Assembly (NCBI GenBank): GCA_023409435.1
Contig: JAEYHP010000055.1
Coordinates: 15,773 to 79,772, forward strand
Direction of reading: 5' to 3'
Length of the DNA: 64,000 nucleotides
DNA from: Bacillota bacterium
Lineage (GTDB): Bacteria > Bacillota > Clostridia > Christensenellales > CAG-138
In this document: positions 7,218-56,462 of the stretch, one piece after another
Numbering within the stretch: position 1 is the first letter of the stretch
How the letters are laid out: each line of letters begins with the position of its first letter
Position numbers and translations under genes: made by a program
Notes under the pieces: model-generated
Database searches by the model: none
What the model saw: only the letters and a program-made list of their open reading frames with translations
Told to the model about the DNA's origin: nothing

Positions 7218-8603
7218 ATGGAAAAGACCATGGAAAAAATCGTGGCGCTGTGCAAGAACCGCGGGTTCATATTCCCCGGCTCCGAAATCTACGGGGGCTT
7301 AGCCAACGCGTGGGACTACGGCCCGCTGGGCGTGGAATTCAAAAACAACGTCAAGCGCGCCTGGTGGCGCAAGTTCGTGCAGGAAAGCCCCTACAACGTG
7401 GGCTTAGACGCGGCAATCTTAATGAATCCGCAGGTCTGGGTCGCATCCGGCCATGTGGGCGGCTTTTCCGATCCGCTGATGGACTGCAAGGCCTGCAAGG
7501 CCCGCTTCCGAGCGGATAAGCTCATTGAGGATTACGCGCACGAACATAGCCTCGATGTCCACCCCGATGGCTGGAACAACGCGCAGATGGAAGAGTACAT
7601 CCAGAAGCAGGGCATTTCCTGCCCCGAATGCGGCAAGGCGGAGTTTACCTCCATCCGTAAATTCAACCTCATGTTCAAGACGTTCCAGGGCGTAACGGAG
7701 GATAGCTCTTCTGAACTGTTCCTGCGTCCCGAGACCGCGCAGGGCATGTTCGTCAACTTCAAGAACGTGCAGCGCACCACCCGCAAGAAGATCCCCTTCG
7801 GCATCGCGCAGGTGGGCAAATCCTTCCGCAACGAAATCACGCCGGGCAACTTCACGTTCCGCACACGTGAGTTCGAGCAGATGGAGCTGGAGTTCTTCTG
7901 AGAACCCGGTACGGATTTGGAATGGTACGAGTATTGGAAGAGCTTCTGCAAGAACTGGCTGCTCGCTTTGGGTATGAAGCAGGAAAGCATGCGGCTTCGC
8001 GAGCATGAAAAGGAAGAGCTTTCCCACTACTCTAAGGGCACCACGGATATTGAGTTCCTCTTCCCGTTCGGCTGGGGCGAGCTTTGGGGCATTGCGGACC
8101 GTACGGATTTCGACTTAAAGCAGCACGCCAAGCACTCCGGAGAAAACATGGAGTACGTGGACCCGTTTGATAATCAGAAGAAGTACGTCCCCTACTGCGT
8201 GGAGCCCGCGTTGGGTGCGGACCGCGTGGCGCTTGCCTTCCTGTGCGACGCCTACGATGAGGAAACGCTTGAAGGTGGGGATGTTCGCACCGTGCTGCAC
8301 CTCCACCCCGCGCTTGCGCCCTACAAGGTCGCTATCCTGCCGCTGCAGAAGAAGCTTGGCGAGAAAGCGCAGGAAGTCTACGCAAAGCTTGCGAAGCACT
8401 GCATGGTGGATTACGACGAAAGCGGCGCAATCGGCCGCAGGTACCGCAGGCAGGACGAAATCGGCACCCCCATGTGCGTTACCGTGGATTTTGACACGCT
8501 CGAAGACGATACCGTCACCGTGCGAGATAGAGATACGATGCAGCAGATCCGCCTGCCCATCTCCGAGCTTCCCTCTTACGTGATGGCGAAGACGGAGTTT
8601 TAA
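7218..8603 (+). CDS. glyQS: glycine--tRNA ligase (single-chain GlyQS type), one frame interrupted by an in-frame TGA at 7899-7901
   Basis: ORFs 7104-7901 and 7917-8603 are in the same frame (both coordinates are 0 mod 3). The joined length is 461 codons. Sequence reads [34 protein letters not shown] ... [15 protein letters not shown][TGA][25 protein letters not shown] ... [15 protein letters not shown] aggagg before ATG 7218. Confidence 0.85.
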
Positions 8604-8626
8604 AGGGATCGCCTTGATACTTTTTC

Positions 8627-8774
8627 AGGGGCTTTGCCCCCGAATTCCCACCCAAGGGACATATCCCTTGGGAATCCCTTTTATCTGAAACGCTCCAAAT
8701 AGAGCGTTTCAGTGGATGGGTTCTTAGGGCCGTTACGGCCCTAAGCGGGTGTTTGAGGGCAGAGCCCTCAACGT
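8627..8774 (+). repeat. composite hairpin mosaic element, type 1 (modules G-H-F-A-B)
   Basis: Modules are G caggggctttgcccccg, H cccaagggacatatcccttggg, F ctgaaacgctccaaatagagcgtttcag, A gggttcttagggccgttacggccctaagcgg and B gtttgagggcagagccctcaacgt. The same module order occurs at 34113-34336 and, inverted, at 25626-25743. Confidence 0.8.
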
Positions 8775-9701: not shown

Positions 9702-12700
9702 TACACCGCCACCGCTTCCCCCGCGCCCAGCAGAACCACGTAGCGTTCAAGCACCGGAAGGCCGGAAAGCGTCTCAAGCGCCTCAGAATAAAGCGAAAGC
9801 TGGCCTGTGTGCTTCTTTGCCGCGTCAACCGGCGTTTCATGAGGGAGCAAAGCGTCGGTCTTATAATCCAGCAGCACCCATCCGCCATCTTCCAGAAAAC
9901 AGCAGTCGATCACGCCCTGTAGCAGCACCTGCTCGCCCGTGCCCTCCAAGGGCAGCCGTTCCACGTCCACGCTGGCGGCGAACTCCAGTTCTCGCTCCAC
10001 TTTGGAGGAGGAGCGCAGCCGCAGCCCCAGCGGGCTTTTCAAAAACGCGGCAATATCCCGCGCGTCCACGGCCTGCGCCTGTTGCTGGGATAATAGGCCC
10101 AGATCCACCATGCGGGCGATTTCATCCTGTACAAAAGAAGTCGCGTCCCCCGCGGGGATGCGGGAAAGGGAAATCTCCTTGAGTATGGCATGCGCGTACG
10201 TGCCGCGCTGTGCGCCCGTAATGCGCGCGGTTTTCCGCGCGAATGCGGGCGCTTCCCGCAAGGAAACGGGGTGCGCGTGCATCAGCTCGCTCACGCTGCG
10301 CTTGGTGGGGATATTGGCTGCTGCCATGTGCGGGTATGCCCAATCAAACCGCTCGCGGATAACGGCAAACAGCCGCGCTTGCTCTTCCTGCTCCGGCTGC
10401 GGTGCTTGCTGCCGCGGCGCGCTAAAGCCGGATACGGCTGCCCGCGTGGTGAACCGCACAGGCAGCGCTTCTGTCTGCATGGCCACGGGCAGCAGCCAGG
10501 ATAAAGCGTTTTTCGCTTTCGTGCAGTAAGCGGGGGTCAGCTCCGTCGCCTGCAACTCCTGCGCCGTTTCCCATGCGTTTTTCATGCTGCCGATGAGTAC
10601 CAGACGGTTTTTCGCCCGCGTCATGCCCACGTAGAGGATGCGCATTTCCTCGGCAAGCTGTTCGCGTAAGAGCCGGTTGGTGATGGCCTGCCGAAAAAGC
10701 GTGTCCCGCCGCACATGCCCTACGCGCACACGCAGCCCTAAACCCAAGTTGGGTTCCGCCACCAGATCGTCCTGCGCGGTGTGGCGGTTAAAATCCTTAC
10801 CCAGACCCGCGCAGAATACCACGGGAAACTCTAAGCCCTTGGAGCCGTGCATGGAAAGCACGCGCACCACGTCTGCGGCGCCCGCCTGCGCGCAGCCCAG
10901 GGTAGCCGTGGCCGCCGCCTTGTCCATGTACTGCAAAAAGCTCCAAAGGTCCAAAGGGAAACCTGCGTCCGCGTACGCCCGGGCGCGCCCAATCAGCGCG
11001 TCCAAATTCGCCTGGCGCTCCTTGCCGTTTGGCAGCGCGCCCACGCAATCGTAATACCCCGTTTCGTCCATCAGCCAGGCGATCAGCTCCGGCAGCGGCA
11101 CAAGCAGCGATTCTTTTTTATACTTCGTGAGTAGAAGAATCACCTGAAGCACGTGTGCGCCAAGCGGCGTATCATACTGGCTGCACATTGTCAGCCGGTC
11201 GATCCACGCCTCGGCGCCATAGTCGGTACGCAGCGTAATCAGTTCTTCAATCGTAAAATGGAACACGGGCGAACGCAGCACGCTGAGCATGGGGATATCC
11301 TGCCGCCGGTTGTCGATCACGCGCAGCAGGTTTAAAAACACCTGCACCTCTATGGCGTCAAAATATCCGCCCGTCAGGTGCACATACGCGGGGAAACCCA
11401 TTTTTGCGAGCGTCTGCGCCCACGCTTCCGCCGCCCTGCGCTGCGCCCGCATCAGTATGGCAAAGTCGGAATATTTTAATGGCCGCGTTCCTCCGTCTTT
11501 ATCCGGGCAGCGGGCAGTTTCCATCAGCTCTCGGATGCGCCGCGCCGCGAGCATGGCCTCGGCTTCGACGTCGTTGGCGATATACGCTTCCTCTTCCTCG
11601 CTTGTGCTTTCCTGCCGGTCTTCCTGTTCCGCATCGTCCGCGGGAACGGGTTCTTCCTCCGGCTTGTCCTCTGCTTCCTCCGGGCCCACGCTTGCGTCTC
11701 CACGTTCTATGACATGGCACTCCACACCCGCAAGCCCGCTGTTTTCCGGCATCTCCTCCGGGCATTTGAGCGCCGCGGTGTCGTCATAGTCTAGTTCTGC
11801 GACCTCTTCGGCCATGATGCGGGAGAACAGAGCGTTCACGGCGTTTATTATCGGGCGCTCGCTTCTGAAATTCGTATTGAGGTGGATCTGCCTGCCCGGC
11901 GCATCCGTTTCGCCCGTATAGGTGCTGAGTTTTTCTAAAAACAACCCCGGGTCGGCCTGACGGAAGCGGTAAATGGACTGTTTGACGTCCCCCACAAGGA
12001 ACACATTGTCCTCGCGGCGTACAGCCTCGATTAAACATTCCTGTATGCGGCTGCTGTCCTGGTACTCGTCTACGAAGATGTACCGGAAGCGGTTCCGGAG
12101 CGCGTTGCGGGTTTCTTCCTCCTCTAAAGCATGCAGCGCCAGGTGCTCCATGTCCGAGAAATCCACCACGCCGTGCCCGCGCTTTAATTCCGCGTACCGC
12201 GCGTCCACATCCCGCACAAACGCGCACAGCGCCCCGACCTGCGGCGCGATGGCGTTGAAAAACTCGGCTTCTTCTTCCAGAGACCGCGCAAGCAAATCCT
12301 GCTGCCGTTTGATCTCTTTTCTGGCTCTGTCCCGGAGCGCGGCGACCCGTTCTTTTAATTCCGGCTCCACGTCCCCGCGCGGCCACGCAAAGCGGCCGAA
12401 GGAGACGGACAATAGCTGTGCCCGGTACTGCGGCAGCGACTGTATTTTGCCTAAAAACAACGCGCCGACCTGCGCGAGCTCCATGTCAAGAAGCGAGCGG
12501 GTGGCCGCATACTCCGCCGGGGTCAGCTCCCGCGCGCGGCGCAGATTGTCATACTGGTTCCGCGCTTCGGCCCGCAAATCTTTACACAGCGCAAACAGCG
12601 CGGGGTGCTCCATAAATTCCGCGCCGGTGAGCGAATACTGCGTTTCCGCATGGGCAAGCCATTCCCATGGATCGGGCTGGGCCATCAAAAAGCGGTGGAG

Positions 12701-35463: not shown

Positions 35464-35680
35464 ATAAAAAGAGCGCGCAAAAAGAAATTGCGCGCTCCGT
35501 CCTTGCACCTGAGAGATTCCCCTGTTACGTTCTAAAAGATGAACAAGGTTGCCCCATCGGCGCCGCCATAGTAAGGCGGCTTTCCGGAGGTTTGTCCGGG
35601 TACGGTTCTTTTGCCTGAGAGTTTTTGCCCTTCCCCTTCGGCGCCGCGCTATGCGGTCTCTCCCGAACCCATCATCCACA
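35464..35680 (-). promoter_or_regulatory. tandem glycine riboswitch with terminator-type expression platform, upstream of gcvT
   Basis: On the minus strand, aptamer 1 is cgggagagaccgc...gcgccgaaggggaagggcaa. Aptamer 2 is ctccggaaagccgcc...ggcggcgccgatggggcaacc. The terminator is gagcgcgcaatttctttttgcgcgctcttttt (35464-35499). Confidence 0.85.
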
Positions 35681-39530: not shown

Positions 39531-39664
39531 CAGCGGATATTTTGATTTGCGGCAAGTGAGTAATCGCTCATAGTTATACGTTTCAAGAATCTGACAAAAA
39601 TCCGCATAATACTTCCCCACAGAATCCGCCCGCAGCATGGAAATGCCCAAAGATAGGGCGTTTC

Positions 39665-39693
39665 TTGCGTTTTGCGGCAAGACGTGTTATACT
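39665..39693 (+). promoter_or_regulatory. candidate sigma-A promoter for the tri-domain gene
   Basis: TTGCGT, a 17-nt spacer, then TATACT. Confidence 0.4.
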
Positions 39694-39779
39694 TTGCTGT
39701 GTATACTCATTGCATGCTTTCTTTTTTTTTGCGCATGCACGGCATTATAACGCATATTAATTCTGTGGGAGGAATAATT

Positions 39780-42700
39780 ATGCACTCAATCGGGGAAACC
39801 ACGCATACTCTGAAATCGGGGACGCATACGCTGGAAGCCATCTACAACACGATCGTTTCTCACGGGGACGCGCCAAGCGCGCAGTACGACAAGAACGGCG
39901 AAATCCGCTACATCACATTCAGCGAGTACGACCGGCGCGTGCGCCACGCGGCTGCGGGGCTTCAAAAGATATTGGGCGTGCCGGAAAAGCCGCTCTATAT
40001 CGGCATCCGCATGGACAATTCGCCGGACTACGCTACGGTGTTCTGGGGCGCCATCATGGCGGGCTACCAGCCCGTGCTCATCGACTTCCGGTCGGACGCC
40101 AAGCAGACCGAGCATATCGTCAGGCAGACGCAGTCAGTCGCGGTCATCACGCTGGATCAGATCGCCCTGCCCGCAGGCGTGCATTTAATCGACCCAGCGC
40201 CGCTGCTGCAGGATTGCGAAGGCGAGGTCCGAGGCGGGTTCGCAAACCGCGTCGCCATGTGCACCTCCGGCACCACGGCTTCTTCCAAGGTATATGTATA
40301 CGACGGCCAGGCCCTTACCATACAGTTGCTGGACTTTCTGGCGCTTGCCCGGCTGTCCCCGGAGTTTTTGAACGACAAGCCGCACAGGGTGCTTGCGTTC
40401 CTGCCCTTCCACCACATTTTCGGCTTTATGACGATGATGATGGCGTATACGGTGTTCGGTAAGACAATCGTGTTCCCAAAGGACCGCACCAGCAAATCCG
40501 TGCAGGAGGCGTGCAGGCTCCACCATATCACGCACCTGTTCAACGTACCGCTTTTCTGGAACTCCGTGGCGCAGAAGCTTGCGCGCGCGGCTCGGCAAAA
40601 GGGCGAGGAGAAAGAACGCAAGCTCAATAAGCTGGTGGAAAGCTCCGTCAAGAACCAGCGCGTGTTCGGCAAGGCCGCGCGGGTGTATTATTCAAACCTC
40701 ACCTATGGCATTCGCAAAAACCTGTTGGGTACGCACCTGAACTGCGGCATCAGCGGCGGCGGGCGCATATTGCCCGATACGCTCAAGCTGCTAAACGGCA
40801 TCGGCTGCCCGCTCGTGAACGGCTTTGGCATGACGGAAGTTGGTATCTCCTCCGTGCAGGTGTTCAACAGCGTAGACGATCAGCTCAATGGCTGCGTGGG
40901 CAGGCCCATGCAGAGCGTCAAAATCAAAATCAAGCCGCGCGAAGGGGACAAAGCCTCCGTCGGCGAGCTCTTTATCAAATCCGCCGCCATGCACATCGGC
41001 CGTATGGTGGAAGGCGAGCTCGTCAAAGCGGAACTCGATGAGGAAGGCTATTTTGCCACGGGCGATATCGCCCGCTTTGAAGGCGGCAAGCTCTGGATAG
41101 AAGGGCGCGTAAAGGACGTCATCATCAACGAAAGCGGCGAAAACGTCTACCCGGACGAGCTGGAGGACGCGTTCGCGGGGATAGACGAAATTCAGCAGGT
41201 CTGCGCGTTCGGTGCGGATTTCGGCGGCCCGTATGAGGACATCACGCTGGTGGTGTACGCGGAAAACATCCAGAAGGACCGCGCGCGCATGGACGCGCTC
41301 ATCAACGCCCTTTCCGTACGCAACGCCCAGTTGCCCATTTATAAACGGGTGCGCCGCTGCTTCTTCTCACTGGCCGCGCTGCCGCTTACTGCCTCCCTCA
41401 AGGTCAAGCGCGTGCGCGTGAAGGAGGACCTCGCGGCAGGCCGGTTTGACGCCGTTGAGGTGGATCTTGCCAAACGCCGCGTATGCGGCAGCATATCCGT
41501 CGCGGGTGCAGGCGCTGAGGTGGAAAAGAGCGAGGCGTATCTCGCCATACTGAACAAGATCAAGGAGTTCTTTGCCGAAGAGCTCTGCCTGAACGTGGAG
41601 GATATCACCGACCGCGCGCACTTTGTATACGACCTGGGCGGGGACAGCCTTGCGTCTTTGGGCGTGTTCACAAAGATCGAGGAATACTTCAAAATACTCA
41701 TCACGGATGACGAATACATCGGCTGCACGTGTGCGGAGGACGCGGCGCTGCTGCTGCTTGCAAAACAGCAGGGCGGCAAGCTGGGCGGCAAAAAGCGGAT
41801 ATCCGCATTTGAGGAAACGCCGGAATGGCAGGCGCTTGAAGCCCGTCTCAAAGAAACGGAGACGATGGGCAACCCCTACTTCATCGCCCACGATTCGCCG
41901 CTGAAGGATACCTCGCTCATACATGGCAAAGAGGTCATCAACTACGGCTCCTACAACTACGTGTGCCTGTCCGGCCACCCGCGTACGGTGAAGGCCGCGC
42001 AGGACGCGGCGACGAAGTACGGCACCTCCGCCAGCGGCAGCCGCTTGCTTGCGGGCGAAAAGACGCTGCACCAGGAGCTTGAAAAAGCGATTGCGGAATG
42101 GAAGCACACCGAAGCCGCGCTTGTGCTGGTGGGCGGCCACAGCACCAACGTGACGTTCGTGGGCAATTTCTGCAACGAGCGGGACCTCATACTCTACGAC
42201 GCGCTTTCCCACAACTCCATCGTACAGGGCTGCCAGCTTTCCACCGCGCACACCAAGGGCTTCCCGCATAACGATTATGTGGCGCTGGAAAACATCCTGC
42301 GCGCCAACCGGGATTCGTATGAAAAGGTGCTCATCGTTGTTGAGGGCGCGTACTCCATGGACGGCGATATCGCGCCCGTGCCGGAATTCGTGCGCATCAA
42401 AAAGGAGTACGGCTGCTTCCTGATGGTGGACGAAGCACATTCCTCCTGCGTCATCGGCGCGCACGGCGGCGGCGTGGACGAACACTTTGGCCTTGCCCCC
42501 GATGATATCGATATCAAGATGGGCACGCTTTCTAAAGGCCTGGGCACCTGCGGCGGGTACCTCGCGGGCAAGCGGGAACTGATCGAATACCAGCGCTACA
42601 ACGTGCCGGGCTTTGTGTTCTCCGTGGGCCTCTCTCCCATGCTGACAGCCGCTACGCTCGAAGGCGTCCGCATCCTGCAGGAGGACAATTCCCTGGTGCA

Positions 42701-43028
42701 GAGCTTGCAGCAGAACATCAGGGATTTCATGGAGGCCGCCCACTCCTATGGGTTCGATACCTGCCTCGCGGGCGAAACCGCCATCGCGCCCATCCTGATC
42801 GGCGCGGATATGGACGCGTTCGCGCTTTCCGCGGAGCTGTTGAAGGAAGGCATATTCGTGCCCCCCGCCGTCTACCCCGCCGTGCCCAAAGGCCAGGCGC
42901 GCCTGCGGTTCTGCCTCACCAGCGCCCATAAGCGCGGGCAGGCGGAGTTTGCTATGCAGATGCTCGACCGGCTGATCAAGGAGCACGGCTACCGCGTGCC
43001 GCGGAAGGAATATCAGACGAAGGGCTAA
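39780..43028 (+). CDS. tri-domain enzyme: AMP-forming acyl adenylation/ligase domain + acyl carrier protein + PLP-dependent alpha-oxoamine synthase (SPT/KBL/BioF class)
   Basis: ATG 39780 with RBS gggagg gives 1082 aa. Adenylation motifs are TSGTTASSK (about 40262-40289), GFGMTE and ATGDIARFEGGKLWIEGRVKD. The ACP phosphopantetheine site is DLGGDSLASLG (Ser codon 41646-41648). AOS motifs are NYGSYNYVCLSGHP, DEAHS and the PLP-Lys GTLSKGLGTCGGY (Lys codon 42534-42536). Confidence 0.85.
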   Translation: MHSIGETTHTLKSGTHTLEAIYNTIVSHGDAPSAQYDKNGEIRYITFSEYDRRVRHAAAGLQKILGVPEKPLYIGIRMDNSPDYATVFWGAIMAGYQPVLIDFRSDAKQTEHIVRQTQSVAVITLDQIALPAGVHLIDPAPLLQDCEGEVRGGFANRVAMCTSGTTASSKVYVYDGQALTIQLLDFLALARLSPEFLNDKPHRVLAFLPFHHIFGFMTMMMAYTVFGKTIVFPKDRTSKSVQEACRLHHITHLFNVPLFWNSVAQKLARAARQKGEEKERKLNKLVESSVKNQRVFGKAARVYYSNLTYGIRKNLLGTHLNCGISGGGRILPDTLKLLNGIGCPLVNGFGMTEVGISSVQVFNSVDDQLNGCVGRPMQSVKIKIKPREGDKASVGELFIKSAAMHIGRMVEGELVKAELDEEGYFATGDIARFEGGKLWIEGRVKDVIINESGENVYPDELEDAFAGIDEIQQVCAFGADFGGPYEDITLVVYAENIQKDRARMDALINALSVRNAQLPIYKRVRRCFFSLAALPLTASLKVKRVRVKEDLAAGRFDAVEVDLAKRRVCGSISVAGAGAEVEKSEAYLAILNKIKEFFAEELCLNVEDITDRAHFVYDLGGDSLASLGVFTKIEEYFKILITDDEYIGCTCAEDAALLLLAKQQGGKLGGKKRISAFEETPEWQALEARLKETETMGNPYFIAHDSPLKDTSLIHGKEVINYGSYNYVCLSGHPRTVKAAQDAATKYGTSASGSRLLAGEKTLHQELEKAIAEWKHTEAALVLVGGHSTNVTFVGNFCNERDLILYDALSHNSIVQGCQLSTAHTKGFPHNDYVALENILRANRDSYEKVLIVVEGAYSMDGDIAPVPEFVRIKKEYGCFLMVDEAHSSCVIGAHGGGVDEHFGLAPDDIDIKMGTLSKGLGTCGGYLAGKRELIEYQRYNVPGFVFSVGLSPMLTAATLEGVRILQEDNSLVQSLQQNIRDFMEAAHSYGFDTCLAGETAIAPILIGADMDAFALSAELLKEGIFVPPAVYPAVPKGQARLRFCLTSAHKRGQAEFAMQMLDRLIKEHGYRVPRKEYQTKG

Positions 43029-43036
43029 AGTGGAGT

Positions 43037-43292
43037 ACGTTGGGGGCTCTAACCACAGTTCGCAATGGGCGCACAGAATCATTCTGCGCTTCCTTGCTCA
43101 CTGGGACTGCGCCTCGCTCCTCCCGCCACAGGCGGCGCTTGGCTACGTCCCCCCATACCCTCGCTTAGGGCCGTAGGCAAGGTACCCGGGGTTCTAAACC
43201 GATTCACAGGATCGGTTTTCACCCTTCGGGCACCGAACCCGCTTTCCTCAGGAAAGCCCCTAAGAACCCAATTTGGGGGATAAACCCCCTGC
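43037..43292 (-). repeat. hairpin mosaic element, long-form B + A modules inverted, plus further hairpins
   Basis: The reverse complement of 43037-43187 aligns block-wise with 34175-34336. Additional hairpins are aaccgattcacaggatcggtt, gctttcctcaggaaagc and gggggataaaccccc. Confidence 0.7.
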
Positions 43293-43313
43293 AAAAAACC
43301 ATACCAATACTCT

Positions 43314-43346
43314 GGAGAAATCCCAACTGGGATTTCTCTTTTTTTC
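43314..43346 (+). terminator. rho-independent terminator after the tri-domain gene
   Basis: ggagaaatcccaactgggatttctc followed by ttttttt. Confidence 0.75.
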
Positions 43347-43416
43347 TGCACATTTGCTCTTGACGTTACATAATGTGTAATGTTATGATTCGTGTAACAA
43401 AGTGAGGAGATGCGAT

Positions 43417-43977
43417 ATGGACACCATCGTACTGTCAGGCAAAAAGGAACTGGATATCTACATCAACCCGCAGCGGCAAAAACTGCTGCGCTGCATGCAC
43501 ATTAAGGGCGTGCCTATGAATCCAAAGCAGCTTGCGGACGAAATCGGCATTTCGGCTTCTTCGGTGCAGCACCATATCAAAAAGCTGGTGGAGCTTGGAA
43601 TCGTGGAGCTGGACCATACCGCGCGCATCCGGGGCATTACGGCGAGCTACTATAAGGTGCTGCCCAAGACCATCAGCATCGGCGGCAAGAATGCGGATAA
43701 AAATGACGAGCAGCGCCTCGCGATCATGCAGAACTCCATAAACGCCATATTTTCCGGCTTCACGGAGTATTGCAAAAGCAACAGGGCGAGAATGGAGCAG
43801 GATGCGCAGCATGGCGACATGCTCACGGGCATTATCCGCCTTAAACAGGAGGAAGCAAAGGAGCTCTATGGCATTATACGGGCGTTTTTAGACAGCCATG
43901 AGCAAACAGAGAATAGAGACGCAGCGCCCTGGGAGTACGCGCTGATCGCCTACCCGGTGGAGGCAAAGGATGCGTAG
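43417..43977 (+). CDS. ArsR-like winged-helix transcriptional regulator
   Basis: ATG 43417 with RBS gaggag. Contains NPQRQKLLRCMHIKGVPMNPKQLADEIGISASSVQHHIKKLVELGIV. Its stop overlaps the start of the MFS gene. Confidence 0.7.
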   Translation: MDTIVLSGKKELDIYINPQRQKLLRCMHIKGVPMNPKQLADEIGISASSVQHHIKKLVELGIVELDHTARIRGITASYYKVLPKTISIGGKNADKNDEQRLAIMQNSINAIFSGFTEYCKSNRARMEQDAQHGDMLTGIIRLKQEEAKELYGIIRAFLDSHEQTENRDAAPWEYALIAYPVEAKDA

Positions 43978-45217
43978 AAGTTTTCAGATCATCGTATTCC
44001 TCAAGAGCTTCGCCACCGGCGTCATGGCCCCGGTGCTGACTTTGGCGCTGCTTGCGCACGGCGCTTCCATCAGCACAGTATCTTTGCTGCTGGGCGCATA
44101 TTCCTTTACGGTGATCGCCGCGGAGTTTCCAAGCGGCGTGTTTGCGGACCTGTGCGGGAGAAAGAAGGCGTTTCTGCTTTCTGCCTTACTCGCCCTGCTT
44201 TGCTATTGCCTGCTGCTGGTTTCAAAGACGGTTCCCTTCCTGTTCGTCGCCATGGTCATACACGGGCTTTCCCGCGCGTTTTCTTCGGGCAGCATCGACG
44301 CGCTGGCAATCGACGATGCGGTTTCAAACGGCAGCGCGCTTGCCAAAGTAACGGCGCGGCTCGCCATACTGGAAAGTGCGGGCCTTGCGGCGGGCGCTTT
44401 ATCGGGCGGCTTTTTATCCGGCTTGGGCGTGCTGTATGAAGGCAACCTCATGGCCAACCTTGCGATCTATGTGCTGCTGTCTCTTTTGACGGTATGCTGC
44501 GTGCGGGAACAGCCGCGCGTTCAGGCGGAACAGGCAGGCGGCTTCCGGCGGTTCCGGCTGCATGTAAAGGAAAGCCTTTCCTTTGCGGCGCAAAGGGGCA
44601 TGGTAAGGATGCTGTTTGTGTTTTCGTTTATTACGGGCTTTGCGCTGATCTCTATCGAGACCTATTGGCAGCCCGCGCTCAACGCGCTTTCCCCTGCCCC
44701 CTGGCTCTTGGGCGTGGTAAGCTTTGCGGGGTTTTTCTGCGTAATATTTGGCAGTAAAGCGATCGAACGCCTGCTTATAAAGCGCCCTGGCGGCGGCCCG
44801 GCGCTGCTGCTTGGGTGTAAGGCGCTGGTTGGAATCTGCTTCATATTGCTCGTCTCCCAATTCCGGGCGCACTTCTTTATCGCTATATATATGCTTGCCT
44901 ACTTGTTCCTGGGCGGCGGCAGCGTGGCGGAAAGCACGCTGCTGAACCGGGCGGCTCCGGCCAGCCAGCGGGCGAGCATACTCTCCCTGTTTTCCTTCGT
45001 GCTGCAAGTCGGCGCGCTTGTTGCGTCCCTGTGCGGCTATGTGGTGAGCGCCCAGACGAATTTCCGCAACATGTGGCTGATTGCGGGCGCGCTGCTCCTG
45101 CTTGGCGCGGCGGCATTCGCCTTGATTTATGCACAGCGCCGGAAGATTGAGAAAAAAGAGCCGGAGTCGCCCGCAAAAAATCAAACGAGAGAAGCGCCCG
45201 AGGCCGTAGAACCTTAA
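43970..45217 (+). CDS. MFS transporter
   Basis: 415 aa, about 12 TM. Contains the MFS loop motif GVFADLCGRKKAF. Translationally coupled to the regulator. Confidence 0.8.
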   Translation: MRRSFQIIVFLKSFATGVMAPVLTLALLAHGASISTVSLLLGAYSFTVIAAEFPSGVFADLCGRKKAFLLSALLALLCYCLLLVSKTVPFLFVAMVIHGLSRAFSSGSIDALAIDDAVSNGSALAKVTARLAILESAGLAAGALSGGFLSGLGVLYEGNLMANLAIYVLLSLLTVCCVREQPRVQAEQAGGFRRFRLHVKESLSFAAQRGMVRMLFVFSFITGFALISIETYWQPALNALSPAPWLLGVVSFAGFFCVIFGSKAIERLLIKRPGGGPALLLGCKALVGICFILLVSQFRAHFFIAIYMLAYLFLGGGSVAESTLLNRAAPASQRASILSLFSFVLQVGALVASLCGYVVSAQTNFRNMWLIAGALLLLGAAAFALIYAQRRKIEKKEPESPAKNQTREAPEAVEP

Positions 45218-45349
45218 CAACGCTTCTCACAGCACAATAAGACTTTCCTGTGGTATAGTGGTAGCATCGGAGAACCGGAGCGGAGCATGGGGATACCCCC
45301 ATCCCCCGCTCTGTTTTGTTTTACCTACAAATATAAAGGGGGAAGCACG

Positions 45350-46810
45350 ATGGCAAAGAATACAGGGAAAAATGGGTCTACACCACTATCGGCAATCGGT
45401 GTGGCCTTGGCGGCCCAAAATGTCAACTCGTTAATGCCCAGTTCTAACAACCAGGTTGATTTATTGGCATTGCAGAAGTGGTTGATAAAACCAAATGAGA
45501 AGGTAATTGCTGAGGGAGTACCAGAAACAAAAAGAATACTGGAACAAGCCAAAAATATGGGTCGTCCAAATCCCGTTACCATTGAAGAAATGCAAGCAGA
45601 AAAGGCGAGCATGAGGGAGTTCCAAAAACAACGGGAGGCGGCTCAAAGGCAGCAAGAGTTATTGAAAAAGACGGCGGGTTCGCAGAAGGGAAATCCAGTT
45701 AGCATGTTCTTGCCTACATATGGCAGCGAGGCAGATCTGACGGAATTGGAAGGTGCATTGATAAAGGCTACTCCGATAGCAATGGAAAATCGTACTGAGG
45801 ACGCACGGGGAATCCTAAGTCAAAGGCACGGGAGACCTGCTACCATTGAAGAGCTTCAAGCGGAAAAGGCGAGCATGAGAGAATTCCAAAGGCAACAGGA
45901 GGAAAATAAAAGGCGGCAGGAGTTGATGGATAAGGCGAATAATTCGTATACGGGGTCAGGAACTAGCTCGACGCTGCCTAGGACAAATGGCAAGACCAAT
46001 GTGCCGGATATAGAAGGGGCGTTAATAAAGCCCAATCCTATAGCAATGGAAAATCGTACCGAGGACGCGCGGGGAATCCTGAGTCAAAGGCACGGGAGAC
46101 CTGCTACCATTGAAGAGCTTCAAGCGGAAAAGGCGAGCATGAGAGAATTTCAAGGGCAACGGGAGGAAAATCAAAGATGGCAGGAGTTATTGGATAAAAG
46201 TTTAGAATCCTATACGGGACCGGGAACCATGCCCCGCTACGCTGGTAATGAAAGTCAGATGCAGGGACCGTTTATTATAAACGATGAGACGATTGCAAAC
46301 GGAACGCAGAATGCAAAAGAAATTCTTGAGCAAACAAAAGATAGACCGATAACCAATATCGAGTCTTTAGATTTATCCTTCCTACCATCATTTAAAGACT
46401 TCGTTGTAGAGCCGTTGGATTTGTCATTAGAAGTTATGGAAAATTTTAGTAAATCTGGTGCTATTAGAAAAGCAGCAAAGGTGGGAGGAAAAGCGCTTAC
46501 TATTGTAAGTGATGTCTATGATATTACAGCAGCAGTATCTGCTGATCTTACAGACTCTGATAAAAAAATAGGAAAGAAAACCGCTGCTGCTGTTGGCGGA
46601 GCAGCATCAAGCGCAGTATTTGGCGCGTTGGGAGCTGCCGCGTTTTCAATATTAGCAGCGGGAGCGGCAGGGGCACTTATGGGATCAGTAATTCCAGGTC
46701 CCGGAACGATAGTCGGGTTTATTGGTGGACTTGTAGGGGGAATGATAGGGGCTGCTGCGGGAGAAGAATTCAGCGATTGGGTAATTAATCAAATCGATTG
46801 GGACGAATGA
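45350..46810 (+). CDS. repeat-containing protein with C-terminal glycine-zipper membrane module (toxin/bacteriocin-like, family not recognised)
   Basis: ATG 45350 with RBS aggggga gives 486 aa. Three or more 88-aa repeats. The C-terminus reads KKTAAAVGGAASSAVFGALGAAAFSILAAGAAGALMGSVIPGPGTIVGFIGGLVGGMIGAAAGEEFSDWVINQIDWDE. AT-richer than flanking genes. Confidence 0.7.
   Translation: MAKNTGKNGSTPLSAIGVALAAQNVNSLMPSSNNQVDLLALQKWLIKPNEKVIAEGVPETKRILEQAKNMGRPNPVTIEEMQAEKASMREFQKQREAAQRQQELLKKTAGSQKGNPVSMFLPTYGSEADLTELEGALIKATPIAMENRTEDARGILSQRHGRPATIEELQAEKASMREFQRQQEENKRRQELMDKANNSYTGSGTSSTLPRTNGKTNVPDIEGALIKPNPIAMENRTEDARGILSQRHGRPATIEELQAEKASMREFQGQREENQRWQELLDKSLESYTGPGTMPRYAGNESQMQGPFIINDETIANGTQNAKEILEQTKDRPITNIESLDLSFLPSFKDFVVEPLDLSLEVMENFSKSGAIRKAAKVGGKALTIVSDVYDITAAVSADLTDSDKKIGKKTAAAVGGAASSAVFGALGAAAFSILAAGAAGALMGSVIPGPGTIVGFIGGLVGGMIGAAAGEEFSDWVINQIDWDE
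45749..46276 (+). repeat. tandem 264-bp (88-codon) in-frame repeat, two near-identical copies
   Basis: Unit starts at 45749 and 46013 (gaaggKgcRtt...). There are long identical runs, e.g. aaggcacgggagacctgctaccattgaagagcttcaagcggaaaaggcgagcatgagagaatt in both copies. A diverged copy lies upstream (about 45479-45720) and a degenerate one downstream. Confidence 0.85.
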
Positions 46811-46843
46811 GGAAAACAACAAACAACAGGAGGTAATTAATTT

Positions 46844-47095
46844 ATGACCTATTATCCGATCGGCACCGTTGTGCTTTTGGTGGGCGGGAATCGCCCTCTT
46901 ATGATTTTTGGGCGCAGGCAGATACAGTCCACGACCAATAAGGAATGGGACTATGTAGCCTGCCTGTATCCTGAGGGAAACATGGGCGACCAATACAATA
47001 TCTTTTTCGAGCATGAGGAAATCGCTACCGTGCTCCATCCGGGCTGGGTATCTGAGTATGAATACGAAATGCAGCGGATATTGAACCAGGCATAG
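46844..47095 (+). CDS. DUF4176 domain-containing small protein
   Basis: 83 aa. MTYYPIGTVVLLVGGNRPLMIFGRRQ...WDYVACLYPEGNMGDQYNIFFEHEEI fits the DUF4176 pattern (LPxGSVVxLxxGxxxLMIxGR...DYxxxxYPEG...xFxxxxI). RBS aggagg. Confidence 0.75.
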   Translation: MTYYPIGTVVLLVGGNRPLMIFGRRQIQSTTNKEWDYVACLYPEGNMGDQYNIFFEHEEIATVLHPGWVSEYEYEMQRILNQA

Positions 47096-47112
47096 ACGAA
47101 TATATGTAAAGC

Positions 47113-47139
47113 AAAAGCGGGGCCATGCGCCCCGCTTTT
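47113..47139 (+). terminator. rho-independent terminator
   Basis: aaaagcggggccatgcgccccgctttt. Confidence 0.8.
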
Positions 47140-47226
47140 GTCATTTCACGCATTATCTAAATTCGCACTTTTCGAACCATTGTTCTTGTGGTACTATATA
47201 GAAAATTGTTTACAAGGTGGATCGCT

Positions 47227-47868
47227 ATGGACATAGTGAAAAGAATATTCCAACGGTTTATCAAGCACGCCCCCAAATCTGAGCCGGAGGCAAGATACCT
47301 GTCGAAGCTGAGAGCGGTTGTATCCGAAGATAGCGTATTCTTTGCCGTACCGGGATATGAGTTGGGCGACTTTTTCAATAAGGAAGTCTTTGATTACCTC
47401 ATGGTAGACATGATGTATGACTTACTGCAAGGGAGCGACGCTGTTTTTTGCGTGCACGCTGCTTTTTACGACAGTTGGCAGAGCGAGTGGGTTGAGGAGG
47501 TGGCAAAAGCGTATTACGCGGATTCTTTTGATCAAGTAGATCGTGCACGAAACAGGTATGTGCTGCTGGGCGAGGCTTCCAAATCCGTTTTGACGACCCT
47601 ATATGAATGCTCGTCAGATTTATTTGATTTAGCGCAACTTTGCAGGATTTATGCTGTAAGCCGGGAAACAGAATTGACAAGGGAGAACCTGCAGGAGGTG
47701 GAAAAGAATTACCGGTTCTATATCTATCCTACTGGAGATAAAGACGGAATTGGCGTAAAAATAGACCCTTCCCAAACCAGCATGCAGGATATATTGGATA
47801 ACGTCCGTAATGCGGCAAAAAAGTACTGCATCTCAATACGCGTGGAAGACAAAGAACAAACAGTCTAA
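47227..47868 (+). CDS. hypothetical soluble protein (213 aa), island cassette 1
   Basis: ATG 47227 with RBS aaggtgg. No TM and no motif I recognise. Own terminator downstream. Confidence 0.6.
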   Translation: MDIVKRIFQRFIKHAPKSEPEARYLSKLRAVVSEDSVFFAVPGYELGDFFNKEVFDYLMVDMMYDLLQGSDAVFCVHAAFYDSWQSEWVEEVAKAYYADSFDQVDRARNRYVLLGEASKSVLTTLYECSSDLFDLAQLCRIYAVSRETELTRENLQEVEKNYRFYIYPTGDKDGIGVKIDPSQTSMQDILDNVRNAAKKYCISIRVEDKEQTV

Positions 47869-47872
47869 AGCT

Positions 47873-47900
47873 GAGCGGGGCAACGCGCCCCGCTTTTTTT
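47873..47900 (+). terminator. rho-independent terminator (near-copy of 47113-47139)
   Basis: gagcggggcaacgcgccccgcttttttt. Confidence 0.8.
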
Positions 47901-47977
47901 GTACAGTGCGAGCTATTGCAATGTTTACGAACAAACGTACTTATGGTACAATGTTCCAAATGATGGAGGAAAGCTAC

Positions 47978-48772
47978 ATGTTCAGAAAAAAGGAAACGTA
48001 CCGGGTAACAGGCGAAGACGTGATTGCATTAAAGGACGAGTATTTTCTGGACCATTATCCTTCAAAGCTTAGGTGCGAATTGCAGCATGGAAATACAGAA
48101 CGGTGGAATCTTGCCGGGCCGGAAATTGAAAATGAGATATGCAGGGACTTTTTTCGCTGTACCGTTGAACTCATGGATGCATTGGCGCAGGGACATAGTG
48201 CCGTTACGGTAATTACGAGTTTGGACTGGATGAAAGAAAAAGAGAGGGAATACGCAAAGGTCAGCCTGTCAAAGAGGCTGTTTGGCGATCCGTATAGGGT
48301 CAAATTGCCCACGCTTGTTCCGGATACGGAATTTGAAAAGCGTTTGGCGGAGCTCTATGATCAATTTCAGAAGCATGGCAGGCTGCTGCCCTGCATTTAT
48401 GGAAAGAGCGTGGCGTTGCTTTCGGATCATATCCCTAAAGAAGTATTCGCAAAGTTCTTTGGGGATATCTATGGCTGGTTTGCAGAAGAACACAACATCC
48501 GCATCTATAAAGCCCCGTTTGAAGAACTCAACGGCAGGTCAGGCCACGAGGTTTTGGAGTATGCAAATTATATGAAGCCGATGCTTGATATGGCAATCAC
48601 GTTTTATCCCACTCTTGACTTTGAATATGATCCAGAACAAATCACTTTTAATGCCATTGCGGAAACCGCAAAGAAAGTGATGAACCGTATGGGTAAGAAG
48701 CTAGGTATCGATGTTTTTGAAGATTACGGAATCATTATTTCAAGAGATAGAGCAGACAGCCATGAAACTTAA
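47978..48772 (+). CDS. hypothetical soluble protein (264 aa), island cassette 2
   Basis: ATG 47978 with RBS ggagga 7 nt upstream. The C-terminal part (FYPTLDFEYDPEQITFNAIAETAKKVMNRMGKKLGIDVFED) weakly resembles the C-terminus of cassette 1 (FYIYPTGDKDGIGVKIDPSQTSMQDILDNVRNAAKKYCISIRVED). Confidence 0.6.
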   Translation: MFRKKETYRVTGEDVIALKDEYFLDHYPSKLRCELQHGNTERWNLAGPEIENEICRDFFRCTVELMDALAQGHSAVTVITSLDWMKEKEREYAKVSLSKRLFGDPYRVKLPTLVPDTEFEKRLAELYDQFQKHGRLLPCIYGKSVALLSDHIPKEVFAKFFGDIYGWFAEEHNIRIYKAPFEELNGRSGHEVLEYANYMKPMLDMAITFYPTLDFEYDPEQITFNAIAETAKKVMNRMGKKLGIDVFEDYGIIISRDRADSHET

Positions 48773-49253
48773 TATCCTCTCCTTTGTTCGTATCGTTGGC
48801 ACAATCTTTCTTGTTCTCTATGGAGCGATTGTGGTGCCCCTGCTCTATGAAATTCTGCAAACCGGAACAACGCTTGGCGAGTTTGAGATGAACATTATGC
48901 TCCCGTTTGTGCTTGTTCTTGCTGCGGTGATTCTTCTTGTCCTTTATGTCAAGCGACAGAAAGCAAAACAGAACATTCCTCCTTTTTATGCCACGCTTAG
49001 TGTGCCTTTCAATCAAGCAATTAAATGGATTGCCTTGGCCGTTCCGGTAGTTTTACTCCCGATGCTGCTGCTGGGGCTGAACTTTCTCATCAACGGCTCC
49101 ATGGAAATGTATCCGTCGGAAGAACGGCAGGATACGGCCAGACTTGTCGGGTTTCTCCTTACTTACTTCTGGAGCGCATTGGCGGTTACCTGCCTTTGCC
49201 TTTTTCTTAAGATTTCGGCCTATATCCGCAGGCAAAAAGCGCCTGATGCATAA
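48762..49253 (+). CDS. 4-TM membrane protein (163 aa), candidate immunity-type protein
   Basis: ATG 48762 overlaps the upstream stop (48770-48772). It has 4 hydrophobic segments (IVGTIFLVLYGAIVVPLL, IMLPFVLVLAAVILLVLYV, IALAVPVVLLPMLLLGLNFLI, LVGFLLTYFWSALAVTCLCLFL). Confidence 0.6.
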   Translation: MKLNILSFVRIVGTIFLVLYGAIVVPLLYEILQTGTTLGEFEMNIMLPFVLVLAAVILLVLYVKRQKAKQNIPPFYATLSVPFNQAIKWIALAVPVVLLPMLLLGLNFLINGSMEMYPSEERQDTARLVGFLLTYFWSALAVTCLCLFLKISAYIRRQKAPDA

Positions 49254-52867: not shown

Positions 52868-53030
52868 TTGACAAATACGCCGGAGCTGTGATATACTCCG
52901 TTCCGGTCACATACGTTTTTTCGCCATAGACAGCAGGTGCGGTAACCGCTTAATTTCCTGCCGAGGTGAGCATAAGCGTTTTTAACGCGCTCCCTTATGT
53001 CTATTGGCAAAGGGAGCGCGTTTTTTATGG
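52868..53030 (+). promoter_or_regulatory. promoter plus ribosomal protein L10 leader (autoregulatory attenuator) upstream of rplJ-rplL
   Basis: TTGACA, a 17-18 nt spacer, then TGaTATACT. The leader has agacagcaggtgcggtaaccgcttaatttcctgccgaggtg (L10-binding-site-like). The terminator hairpin is acgcgctccctt...aagggagcgcgtttttt (52985-53026). Confidence 0.65.
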
Positions 53031-53092
53031 TTGTCGTCCGGCTTTTATAAGCCGGTAAAGCAATACAGTATGGAAAAGAAGGAGGTGAAACC

Positions 53093-55151: not shown

Positions 55152-56462
55152 ATGAAAAAGAAAACAAAGTTTTTGGCGTTCGGGCTTGCAGCCATTCTGC
55201 TATTCGCGTTTGGGTGCGCGGCCCCGCAACCAATTGAAACTCCTGCACCGACAGATTCGGCGCCCGTAAGCGCGGAACCGCTGAAAGTTCCCGCGCTCAA
55301 CCCGGCGAAGCCGCTATTGACACCGGAGTATGACAACGCGGATACAAAAAAGGCGGGAAGCGGCGTGAACGAATTCACGCTTGCGCTGATGCGGAAGCTG
55401 CATAAAAAAGGGGAAAACATGGTCGTTTCCCCGTTCTCCGTCTGGCTGACGCTTGCGGCGCTTGCAAACGCCACCAGCTCAAACGCCCTGCCACAGCTTC
55501 TGGAGGCTCTGGGCGTAAGCGACCTTACGGTAGGGGAACTCAACGCTTCCGTTTCCCGTATGCTATATGAGCTGACCGGCAACGAAGGCGAAACATACAA
55601 CCCTCTTTCCATCGCGAATGCGTTGTTTGTAGACGAATCGGTCACGCTTAAGAAAGAGTTTGCGCAGCAGTTCCTGGATTATTACCGCGGTACTGCCATG
55701 AATGTGGATATGCAAAGCCCCGAGGCGATCAAAGCCATCAACGATTGGGCAAGCGAGCATACCAACGGCCTCATCACGGATATCGTCAAAGAGATCCCGG
55801 AAGATACCATCGTGGCTTTGGCGAACGCCATCTACTTCAGCGACCGCTGGGCTGTGGAGTTTGACGAAGCGCAGACAACGGATATGACGTTCCACGGAGC
55901 GGAAAAGGATGCAACCGTGCCCTTCATGCTGCGTGAAGGCGACGCGATCCCCTATTATGAGGATGAAACGCTGCAGGCTATCAACCTTTCGTTCAAAACC
56001 GGAAGCGGCATGTATATCCTGCTGCCCAAGGACGGCGACGCAGACACATTGATTGATACCATGGACGCCGAACGGTTTTTAGAGATTATTGCGGATACCA
56101 AGCCGTCCACCGGCAAGCTTCTTTTGCCCAGGTTCTCGCTGACTTCGGATTTTAAACTCAACGACGCGTTAAAAGAACTGGGCGTGCCGCTGCTGGATCC
56201 CGCCGGTCCCAGACTGACCGGGCTGGTGGAAGAAACGGACGCATTCATTAATGCTTCGCTGCATCAGGCGACGATCAGCGTGGATGAAAAGGGTACCACT
56301 GCCGCCGCCGTAACGGTGGAACTGATGCAACCGACCTCCATGCCGCTGCCCACCGAGCCGTTCAGTATGGTATGCGACAAACCCTTTGTGTTCATCCTGT
56401 ACCGGTGGACGCCCGAAGGCGGAGAGCAGGCGCTCTTTACGGGCGTGGTGAACCAGCTGTAA
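55152..56462 (+). CDS. serpin family lipoprotein (inhibitory-type hinge)
   Basis: 436 aa. Lipobox LFAFGC. Contains SPFSVWLTLAALANA and the reactive-centre-loop hinge DEKGTTAAAVTVELMQPTSMP, followed by FSMVCDKPFVFILY. Confidence 0.85.
   Translation: MKKKTKFLAFGLAAILLFAFGCAAPQPIETPAPTDSAPVSAEPLKVPALNPAKPLLTPEYDNADTKKAGSGVNEFTLALMRKLHKKGENMVVSPFSVWLTLAALANATSSNALPQLLEALGVSDLTVGELNASVSRMLYELTGNEGETYNPLSIANALFVDESVTLKKEFAQQFLDYYRGTAMNVDMQSPEAIKAINDWASEHTNGLITDIVKEIPEDTIVALANAIYFSDRWAVEFDEAQTTDMTFHGAEKDATVPFMLREGDAIPYYEDETLQAINLSFKTGSGMYILLPKDGDADTLIDTMDAERFLEIIADTKPSTGKLLLPRFSLTSDFKLNDALKELGVPLLDPAGPRLTGLVEETDAFINASLHQATISVDEKGTTAAAVTVELMQPTSMPLPTEPFSMVCDKPFVFILYRWTPEGGEQALFTGVVNQL

Follow-up and report, generated by a model that had tools for sequence, protein, structure and literature searches.

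Long-chain-base synthesis in the Rhodobacteria begins with three separate proteins: a dedicated activator (AasR) loads a dedicated carrier (AcpR), and the acyl-carrier is the preferred donor of serine palmitoyltransferase (SPT), an alpha-oxoamine synthase (AOS) that forms 3-oxosphinganine (Caulobacter CC_1165/1163/1162; E. coli BL21 ECD_02851/02853/02854; PMC9386255). Free fatty acids are in this way routed into long-chain bases, a route that is also proposed here for an analogous enzyme. Unlike the Rhodobacterial trio, it carries all three functions in one polypeptide and belongs to a Gram-positive host, a Bacillota bacterium. Its gene lies in a 64,000 nt stretch of contig JAEYHP010000055.1 (positions 15,773 to 79,772), the whole of which is called the window below, and encodes a 1082 aa protein with an adenylating (A) domain, an acyl carrier protein (ACP) domain and an AOS domain. 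The protein is probably a self-contained loading-and-condensing enzyme that makes a 3-ketosphinganine-like long-chain base.

Several other described systems share features with this tri-domain protein. In Bacteroidota, SPT has the partner reductase KdsR (S. multivorum SPT, 3a2b/8guh; B. thetaiotaomicron BT_0972); this SPT is among the nearest solved relatives of the AOS domain, and KdsR is the best-matching model for the reductases beside relatives of the gene (PMC10196870, PMC9278070). Unlike the window enzyme, Bacteroidota SPT is a stand-alone protein, and the donor described for SPTs is acyl-CoA or acyl-ACP (PMC11087976). ThAOS of Thermus thermophilus (7poa/8s1y), the best-scoring solved relative of the AOS domain, is likewise stand-alone and uses acyl-CoA (PMC11906848). 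In SgaAB of Pseudomonas fluorescens MYb115, a carrier-bound acyl chain is condensed by an AOS with SPT activity, but the chain is assembled by a polyketide synthase (PKS) of the iterative type I and the AOS is separate, whereas the window enzyme would adenylate a ready-made acid and has its AOS fused (PMC12134224). BioWF is a natural fusion of an ATP-dependent acid activator with an AOS; it differs in the fold of its BioW part, in having no carrier, in using a free CoA thioester and in serving biotin synthesis (PMC9544090). The identical Pfam architecture was listed by Milano et al. in 2013 for proteins of other phyla (Microscilla A1ZVW4, Blastopirellula A3ZWL3, Synechococcus PCC 7002 B1XHP8), with the AOS modelled on S. 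multivorum SPT at 42% identity and no product assigned (PMC3870968).

The tri-domain protein and its family

The gene and its domains, as defined by domain searches and homologues, are:

39780..43028 (+), tri-domain enzyme gene (adenylation, carrier, alpha-oxoamine synthase)
39780..41459 (+), ANL acid-activating domain, residues 1-560 (Pfam AMP-binding, 2e-41, at residues 29-404)
41556..41744 (+), carrier domain, residues 593-655 (Pfam PP-binding, 1e-8)
41877..43025 (+), pyridoxal phosphate (PLP) dependent AOS domain, residues about 700-1082 (Pfam Aminotran_1_2, 3e-43, at residues 718-1058)

The first domain has the core motifs of the ANL superfamily, namely A3 (TSGTT, 162-166, within TSGTTASSK, 162-170), A5 (GFGMTE, 348-353), A7 (TGD, 427-429, within ATGD, 426-429), A8 (GRVKD, 442-446) and the A10 lysine (Lys541), as well as the motif LPFHHIFGF (208-216). 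The second is a carrier protein by sequence, with its predicted phosphopantetheine attachment site at Ser623 (nt 41646-41648) in GGDSL (620-624). The third belongs to the AOS family (PLP fold type I) and carries GSYNY (723-727), the PLP-stacking His811, Asp884 and His887 in DEAHS (884-888), the PLP lysine Lys919 in GTLSKGLG (915-922; nt 42534-42536) and Arg1043.

Conservation was scored on an alignment of 119 full-length homologues. TSGTT, GxGMTE, TGD, GRxKD and Lys541 are invariant or nearly so; G621-D622-S623-L624 of the carrier and His811, Asp884, His887, Lys919 and Arg1043 of the AOS domain are invariant. SYNY of the GSYNY motif and GSR of SGSRLL are also invariant. The AOS domain is the most conserved part (mean column identity 0.79) and the linkers are the least conserved. 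This pattern argues for a real and intact tri-functional protein that is under selection in all three parts. The original prediction, made from the sequence alone, had recognised three fused activities from the motifs TSGTTASSK, GFGMTE, ATGD, GR.KD, DSL, DEAHS and GTLSKGLG, every one of which is present, and the Pfam search returned all three domains. Its proposed chemistry of activation, loading and condensation agrees with the intact catalytic motifs in each of them, and the catalytic residues that it had suggested checking for losses are all retained.

A word-indexed search with the protein returned 1323 proteins at E<=1e-10. Nearly all of the best 120 are 1060-1140 aa long and have the same three domains, and their hosts include Christensenellales, Oscillospiraceae, Lachnospiraceae, Clostridium thermarum, Caloramator quimbayensis and others. 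Over 100 protein clusters have this architecture, with full-length homologues at 45-93% identity. The fusion of these activities, described earlier as normally separate, is consequently not rare, and it had already been catalogued in 2013 (PMC3870968). The family is large, uncharacterised and clostridial, and no characterised A-ACP-AOS enzyme, or biochemical study of one, was found in the searchable literature, where the 2013 catalogue and work on analogous systems were all that came up. A protein identical to the window enzyme is present on other contigs, and identical or almost identical copies of the gene are carried by metagenome-assembled genomes (MAGs) of uncultured Bacillota, some of them labelled Feifaniaceae (Clostridia).

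Split forms also exist, as ACP-AOS proteins (loci L023 and L028) and as an AOS alone in Helcococcus bovis KG197 (L027, in the region 9974-11988). The latter is 66% identical to the window AOS domain; a KdsR-like reductase gene follows it directly, and genes for an ABC transporter ATPase and a 545 aa protein without Pfam match precede it. Helcococcus bovis is a cultured Gram-positive coccus and a convenient organism in which to test for long-chain-base production. Two horse-faeces MAGs labelled Bacteroidales (L018, L021) carry full-length tri-domain homologues of 42-43% identity, for which mis-binning or lateral transfer is possible.

Domain relationships and the proposed reaction

When the AOS domain was compared with solved structures by phmmer, the highest scores were those of ThAOS (236 bits), S. 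multivorum SPT (SmSPT; 225 bits) and human SPTLC2 (206 bits). These were followed by glycine C-acetyltransferases (KBLs; 195-180 bits), Sphingomonas SPTs (193-176), CapB (179), SulA (168), 5-aminolevulinate synthase (165) and E. coli BioF (159-160), with CqsA far below (69). ThAOS and SmSPT are each 36% identical to the domain, and BLASTP identities to other references are lower (E. coli B SPT, 34%; Kbl, 32%; BioF, 29%). The best-scoring NCBIfam model is bioF (TIGR00858), at 352 bits against a cut-off of 426, and a BioF/Kbl-related model scores 323. The SPT equivalogs NF047600 (297 against 640), NF047599 (275 against 500) and NF047603 (217 against 670), the KBL models NF005394 (301 against 460) and TIGR01822 (260 against 493) and the CqsA/LqsA model NF005526 (151 against 428) all score below their cut-offs, so that the domain falls in neither the KBL nor the CqsA/LqsA class as modelled. 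It is also fused to an A-ACP loading unit, whereas KBL is a stand-alone enzyme that uses acetyl-CoA, and no tdh gene was seen among the neighbouring genes scanned around the tri-domain gene.

A neighbour-joining tree of AOS sequences (200 bootstraps, one non-AOS outlier excluded) was built with a small set of references: SPT, Kbl and BioF of E. coli B (from BL21), and ThAOS, SmSPT, SpSPT and SPTLC2 as transcribed from HMMER alignments. Fused and split members of the family form one clade, set apart from every reference in 100% of bootstraps. They lie outside the bacterial SPT group, ThAOS groups with Kbl, and the nearest reference to the family is SPTLC2, at only 50% support. With so few references, all that can be read from the tree is that BioF and KBL do not enclose the family. 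Firm clustering with either of these, which the original prediction had named as the outcome that would count against it, was seen neither in the tree nor in the phmmer and BLASTP comparisons. Judged by these sequence comparisons, the AOS domain represents a clade of its own that is closer to the serine palmitoyltransferases and Thermus AOS than to BioF.

The catalytic residues His811, Asp884, His887 and Lys919 align with His138, Asp210, His213 and Lys244 of SmSPT, and Arg1043 aligns with the arginine of its SLIRF motif, in an alignment that also took in ThAOS and human SPTLC2. In AOS enzymes the Asp/His pair contacts N1 and O3' of the pyridine ring, and the conserved arginine serves the substrate carboxylate (PMC10196870). 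The active-site motifs are of mixed type: GSYNY and GSR match SPTLC2/SPT, while the loop YPAVPKGQARLR resembles those of KBL and ThAOS and differs from the RPPATP loop of Sphingomonas SPT.

The acid used by the adenylating domain was approached by searching residues 1-560 against 1.84 billion cluster representatives, with 371 clusters as the result at E<=1e-30. A-ACP didomain proteins of 640-690 aa make up most of the top 150 of these, about 20 are tri-domain proteins, and a few are assembly lines of the type A-ACP-Aminotran_3 (P0140) or A-ACP-C-A (P0194). From this mix of architectures, the A-ACP unit can be seen as a modular loading didomain. A profile of the A-domain clade matched the solved structures of MenE (172 bits), 4CL (164), FadD13 (163) and the A-PCP unit of LgrA (162). 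In metagenome loci, genes for A-ACP didomain proteins directly adjoin PlsC-type acyltransferase genes in 11 cases, lie close to genes for the fatty-acid kinase DegV/FakA in 6, and adjoin LplT-like MFS_2 transporter genes in 3; these didomain relatives are only about 28-31% identical to the window A domain. The motif LPFHHIFGF in the window A domain is one that we take to be of the acyl-CoA-ligase type. Given this motif and the didomain proteins' context of fatty-acid scavenging and lipid acylation, a fatty acid is the most likely substrate.

The didomain clusters deserve mention in their own right. Proteins of about 650 aa with the A-ACP arrangement, which are the nearest relatives of the window A domain, occur in conserved clusters with PlsC-type, DegV/FakA and LplT-like MFS_2 genes (L053, L054-L061, L043 and L044), and these look like an uncharacterised system in which a private carrier is charged with fatty acids that serve in lipid acylation.

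The same A-domain profile gave only 64 bits with AasR of E. coli B, which sets the domain outside the AasR type, and the carrier domain is barely similar to AcpR (31 bits). The reductases found beside relatives are classical short-chain dehydrogenases/reductases (SDRs) unrelated to Epi, unlike the Epi/CerR reductase of the Rhodobacterial pathway. Orthology to AasR/AcpR/Epi was therefore rejected on comparison with the E. coli BL21 cluster. The window protein had been predicted to be a fused equivalent of the acyl-ACP synthetase, ACP and SPT set, a description that suits it as a functional analogue but not by descent.

Neighbouring genes were surveyed by tblastn over all fetched loci, 28 of them outside the window clade and 9 close to it. 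Of the 28 more distant loci, 14 have an SDR gene no more than 150 nt from the homologous gene, including those of Clostridium thermarum (SDR at L029, 9096-9974) and Caloramator, where it flanks the tri-domain gene. It is found in three placements (upstream on the same strand, downstream, or divergent) and also adjoins the split forms, both ACP-AOS (L023, L028) and AOS-only (L027). Clustering of all neighbours showed it to be the only family that recurs beside the gene across clades. For all 14 SDRs the best NCBIfam model is NF049977, KdsR (3-ketodihydrosphingosine reductase), at 181-350 bits. The SDRs of the two cultured species reach 349-350 bits, which is 80-85 bits above the next model; for the remaining SDRs the scores are 181-237 bits and the lead is small. 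The AOS domain of the window is 58-66% identical to those of the SDR-linked members and, since the active-site motifs are invariant across the family, the same class of product and substrate is expected for the window enzyme. The adjacent KdsR-like reductases lend support to the sphingoid-base idea of the original prediction, for which most of the support comes from relatives.

The reaction would proceed as follows. The ANL domain would adenylate a free carboxylic acid, for which a fatty acid of medium or long chain is the likeliest candidate, and load its acyl group onto the built-in carrier, at the phosphopantetheine arm of Ser623. The PLP domain, through Lys919, would form an external aldimine with a small amino acid, most likely L-serine, with alanine or glycine possible. 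Decarboxylative Claisen condensation with the tethered acyl thioester would then yield a 2-amino-3-ketoalkane, i.e., a 3-ketosphinganine-like base. In about half of the distant relatives, the adjacent KdsR-like SDR would reduce the ketone to an amino alcohol, and the final product may be a membrane lipid; in the window organism such a reductase, if there is one, would be encoded outside the window. Carrier-bound acyl donors for SPT-type enzymes have precedents in AasR/AcpR/SPT (PMC9386255) and SgaAB (PMC12134224). The system appears to be assembled from other parts than these: an A-T didomain in the style of non-ribosomal peptide synthetases (NRPS) and PKS, a distinct AOS clade and a reductase of the Bacteroidota type.

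A number of observations weigh against this interpretation. The AOS domain scores under every curated NCBIfam cut-off, including those of all three SPT models, and an SPT-like sequence is no guarantee of SPT activity, as seen for Nostoc Npun_R3567 (PMC8895605). The homology of the A domain, with MenE and 4CL at the top, does not separate fatty acids from aryl or dicarboxylic acids. All 14 SDRs lie under the KdsR cut-off of 400, most of them only 2-20 bits above generic SDR models, and none of the 9 close loci has an SDR beside the gene, so that the two-gene module of AOS and KdsR-like reductase does not occur in the window clade. No gene for a reductase, N-acyltransferase or other lipid enzyme was found in the 64 kb window or, in the 9 close relatives, within about 10 kb of the gene. 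For the window, the original prediction had already noted the absence of a ketoreductase and an N-acyltransferase; tblastn detected no SDR gene across the 64 kb, and no GNAT, phosphopantetheinyl transferase or biotin gene turned up among the larger open reading frames (ORFs) scanned. Lastly, no report of sphingoid lipids in Clostridia was found in the searchable literature. It may be noted that SPT and reductase genes are not always clustered in known producers, C. crescentus and E. coli BL21 being the sole cases in which the five dihydroceramide genes lie together (PMC9386255).

The surrounding locus and alternative products

The window is ordinary chromosome, with genes for TatD, AddAB, a polyamine-type ABC transporter and a glycine-cleavage (gcv) operon among others. 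From the gcv operon, the gene order runs through a DUF362 Fe-S protein, a purine nucleoside phosphorylase and an Amidase_6 protein to the tri-domain gene. Beyond it are genes for an HD protein, nusG, ribosomal proteins L11/L1/L10/L12, a serpin, a sigma factor and pheST. The upstream synteny is retained in all close relatives, and the gene sits in a conserved housekeeping arrangement (gcv operon to nusG and ribosomal protein genes), not in a biosynthetic island. The signals and genes immediately around it are:

39639..39665 (+), terminator-like hairpin after the upstream Amidase_6 gene, 10 bp stem with a weak T run (pattern match only)
39767..39772 (+), ribosome binding site GGGAGG, 7 nt ahead of the ATG at 39780 (sequence read directly)
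43314..43339 (+), terminator-like hairpin between the tri-domain gene and the regulator gene, 11 bp stem plus T7
43360..43389 (+), sigma-70-like promoter before the regulator-MFS pair, TTGACG-18-TATGAT with TG, 10/12 matches (pattern match only)
43417..45217 (+), regulator-MFS cassette, judged not to be part of the system (Pfam, NCBIfam)

The ORF that encloses the tri-domain gene spans 39672-43028, and the ATG at 39780 is the realistic start because it is preceded by GGGAGG. The hairpin at 39639-39665 suggests that the gene has its own transcription start, and it appears to be transcribed on its own.

The cassette downstream comprises an ArsR/MarR-type winged-helix regulator of 186 aa (43417-43977 by the gene-caller start; 43402 is where the longest ORF begins) and an MFS efflux-type transporter (43970-45217). 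The two genes overlap by 8 nt, so they could be translationally coupled, as had been predicted, and probably form one unit. A spacer of 388 nt, which contains the terminator-like and promoter-like sites listed above, lies between the tri-domain gene and this pair. In locus L002, which is about 93% identical in nucleotide sequence over the gene, the equivalents of positions 43050 and 45213 are joined directly and the cassette (43051-45212) is missing. It is also absent from L004, and in L005, L008 and L116 it is separated from the tri-domain gene by 2-3 other genes; beside distant homologues it was never found. With such sites in between and a presence that is independent of the tri-domain gene, the pair is taken to be an unrelated efflux-type cassette. 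The suggestion that it exports an amphiphilic product was rejected as unsupported.

Compared with L002, the cassette and its 350 nt GC-rich upstream spacer represent a clean presence/absence difference. A search of Rfam gave no match for the spacer, at the end of which is a strong terminator-like hairpin. The stretch that follows, 45287-49253 (+), has a GC content of about 45% and four ORFs (507, 226, 320 and 180 aa) without Pfam or NCBIfam matches, and is rearranged, replaced or absent in the close relatives L002-L008 and L116. The interval from the tri-domain gene to the HD/nusG genes is a strain-variable, lower-GC island.

Three further features of the window are of a more general kind. Tandem glycine riboswitch aptamers (35495-35675 (-); 63.7 and 50.2 bits) lie upstream of gcvT-gcvH-gcvP in the standard tandem arrangement, and the rplK-rplA-rplJ-rplL region has an ordinary ribosomal protein L10 leader (52906-53034 (+); Rfam RF00557, 70 bits). 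Serpins are uncommon in bacteria; the one encoded here has 436 aa (55152-56462 (+); Pfam Serpin, 3e-79) and its gene is followed by that of an ECF-type sigma factor.

These surroundings bear on the question of whether the product might be a small secreted or signalling alpha-amino ketone, such as a precursor of alkyl-pyrazines or of a CqsA/LqsA-type alpha-hydroxyketone autoinducer, that is made by a minimal assembly line of NRPS/PKS kind and exported by the regulator-MFS pair. The A-T didomain clade does also feed NRPS and aminotransferase assembly lines (P0194, P0140), a regulator and efflux-type transporter do lie downstream, and neither a reductase nor an acyltransferase is near the gene in the window, whose clade as a whole is without a linked reductase. 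However, CqsA is the least similar of all the AOS types compared, the cassette is strain-variable and, from its promoter- and terminator-like sites, separately transcribed, the gene belongs to a housekeeping context, and its only conserved partner is a KdsR-like reductase. We consider a secreted amino ketone unlikely.

Two other readings keep the condensation and change its substrates. The same chemistry with alanine or glycine would give amino ketones or alcohols of the 1-deoxy or 1-desoxymethyl type, as suggested by the KBL- and ThAOS-like loop YPAVPKGQARLR, by the bioF and BioF/Kbl-related models being the best NCBIfam matches, and by the fact that SPT itself takes alanine and glycine (PMC10196870). 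Set against this are the GSYNY and GSR motifs, the position of SPTLC2 as nearest tree reference (again at only 50% support) and the similarity of the partner reductase to KdsR; moreover, SmSPT recognises the serine side chain mainly through the PLP phosphate and water, so that sequence alone discriminates poorly between these amino acids (PMC10196870). Such a product seems rather improbable. Alternatively, the enzyme could be an ANL-based counterpart of BioW-BioF, in which pimelate would be activated, attached to the built-in ACP and joined with alanine to form 8-amino-7-oxononanoate. Besides the bioF score, this draws on the JGI label of homologues ('8-amino-7-oxononanoate synthase/acyl carrier protein') and on acid-activating BioW-BioF fusions, one of them in a member of the Clostridia (PMC9544090). 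But the score is under the bioF cut-off and places the domain outside BioF, no reference except CqsA is more distant than E. coli BioF, Pfam shows that the adenylating domain is not a BioW, and the conserved SDR partner has no role in biotin synthesis. Searches by tblastn for BioA, BioB, BioC and BioD gave zero matches in the window and about 110 related loci. A biotin role is extremely improbable and was rejected.

Possible later lipid steps in relatives and significance

For the preferred product, a 3-ketosphinganine-like long-chain base, some relatives of the tri-domain gene offer hints of later steps. In both L034 and L046, genes for an acyl-CoA synthetase of about 570 aa and a 2-oxoacid_dh-type acyltransferase of about 297 aa adjoin the tri-domain gene and its SDR; the same pair is beside the tri-domain gene of L036, where there is no SDR, and L034 has an additional PlsC-type acyltransferase gene. 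A related pair (43-44% and 28-32% identity) flanks a GNAT protein homologous to YghO in L121-L123. YghO is the 'aca' N-acyltransferase required for dihydroceramide synthesis (PMC9386255), and the synthetase/acyltransferase pair may represent an N-acylation module. The regions that include it are:

L034, 369-8010, synthetase/acyltransferase pair
L046, 4405-11300, synthetase/acyltransferase pair
L121-L123, 5264-9167, related synthetase/acyltransferase pair

L012 likewise has a YghO-like GNAT gene (7606-8757), which lies 1.2 kb upstream of its tri-domain gene. Its product of about 375 aa has full-length homology to E. coli YghO at 30% identity. The gene follows a LytR-CpsA-Psr gene, both here and in the close relatives P0273 and P0279 (L124-L126), which have no tri-domain gene nearby, while the Feifaniaceae-labelled GNAT P0362 (L118-L120) has a different housekeeping context. 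The YghO-like family is very widespread in Clostridia, with more than 6,900 matches. As the adjacency is not conserved and the family is so large, the L012 GNAT was rejected as a linked ceramide synthase and is a weak lead only. An indirect tie between such a GNAT and the tri-domain gene is the synthetase/acyltransferase pair, which flanks the former in L121-L123 and the latter in L034, L036 and L046. Both the synthetase/acyltransferase and the GNAT contexts are leads, not evidence for ceramide synthesis.

Gut microbial sphingolipids affect host immunity and ceramide pools, and in the searchable literature they are credited almost entirely to Bacteroidota (PMC7235224, PMC10626005, PMC11087976). 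We tentatively suggest that many Clostridia of gut, rumen and digesters could make sphingoid bases, and perhaps N-acylated ceramide-like lipids too, by an independently assembled pathway. Its hosts might include Christensenellales, Oscillospirales, some Clostridiaceae, Lachnospiraceae, and Peptoniphilaceae such as Helcococcus. The pathway itself might combine a fused A-ACP-AOS with a KdsR-like reductase, to which an acyl-CoA synthetase could be added that works with 2-oxoacid_dh-type, PlsC-type or YghO/bCerS-like acyltransferases. With cultured carriers available (Clostridium thermarum, Caloramator quimbayensis and Helcococcus bovis), the hypothesis is directly testable. The single-polypeptide design removes the need for acyl-CoA, would be the third independent way of building the first step of the pathway, and could serve as an amino-ketone biocatalyst. 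The clostridial family and its adjacent KdsR-like reductase point to a second, unrecognised group of producers and, if this is true, Bacteroidota would cease to be the sole microbes known to supply the gut with sphingolipids.

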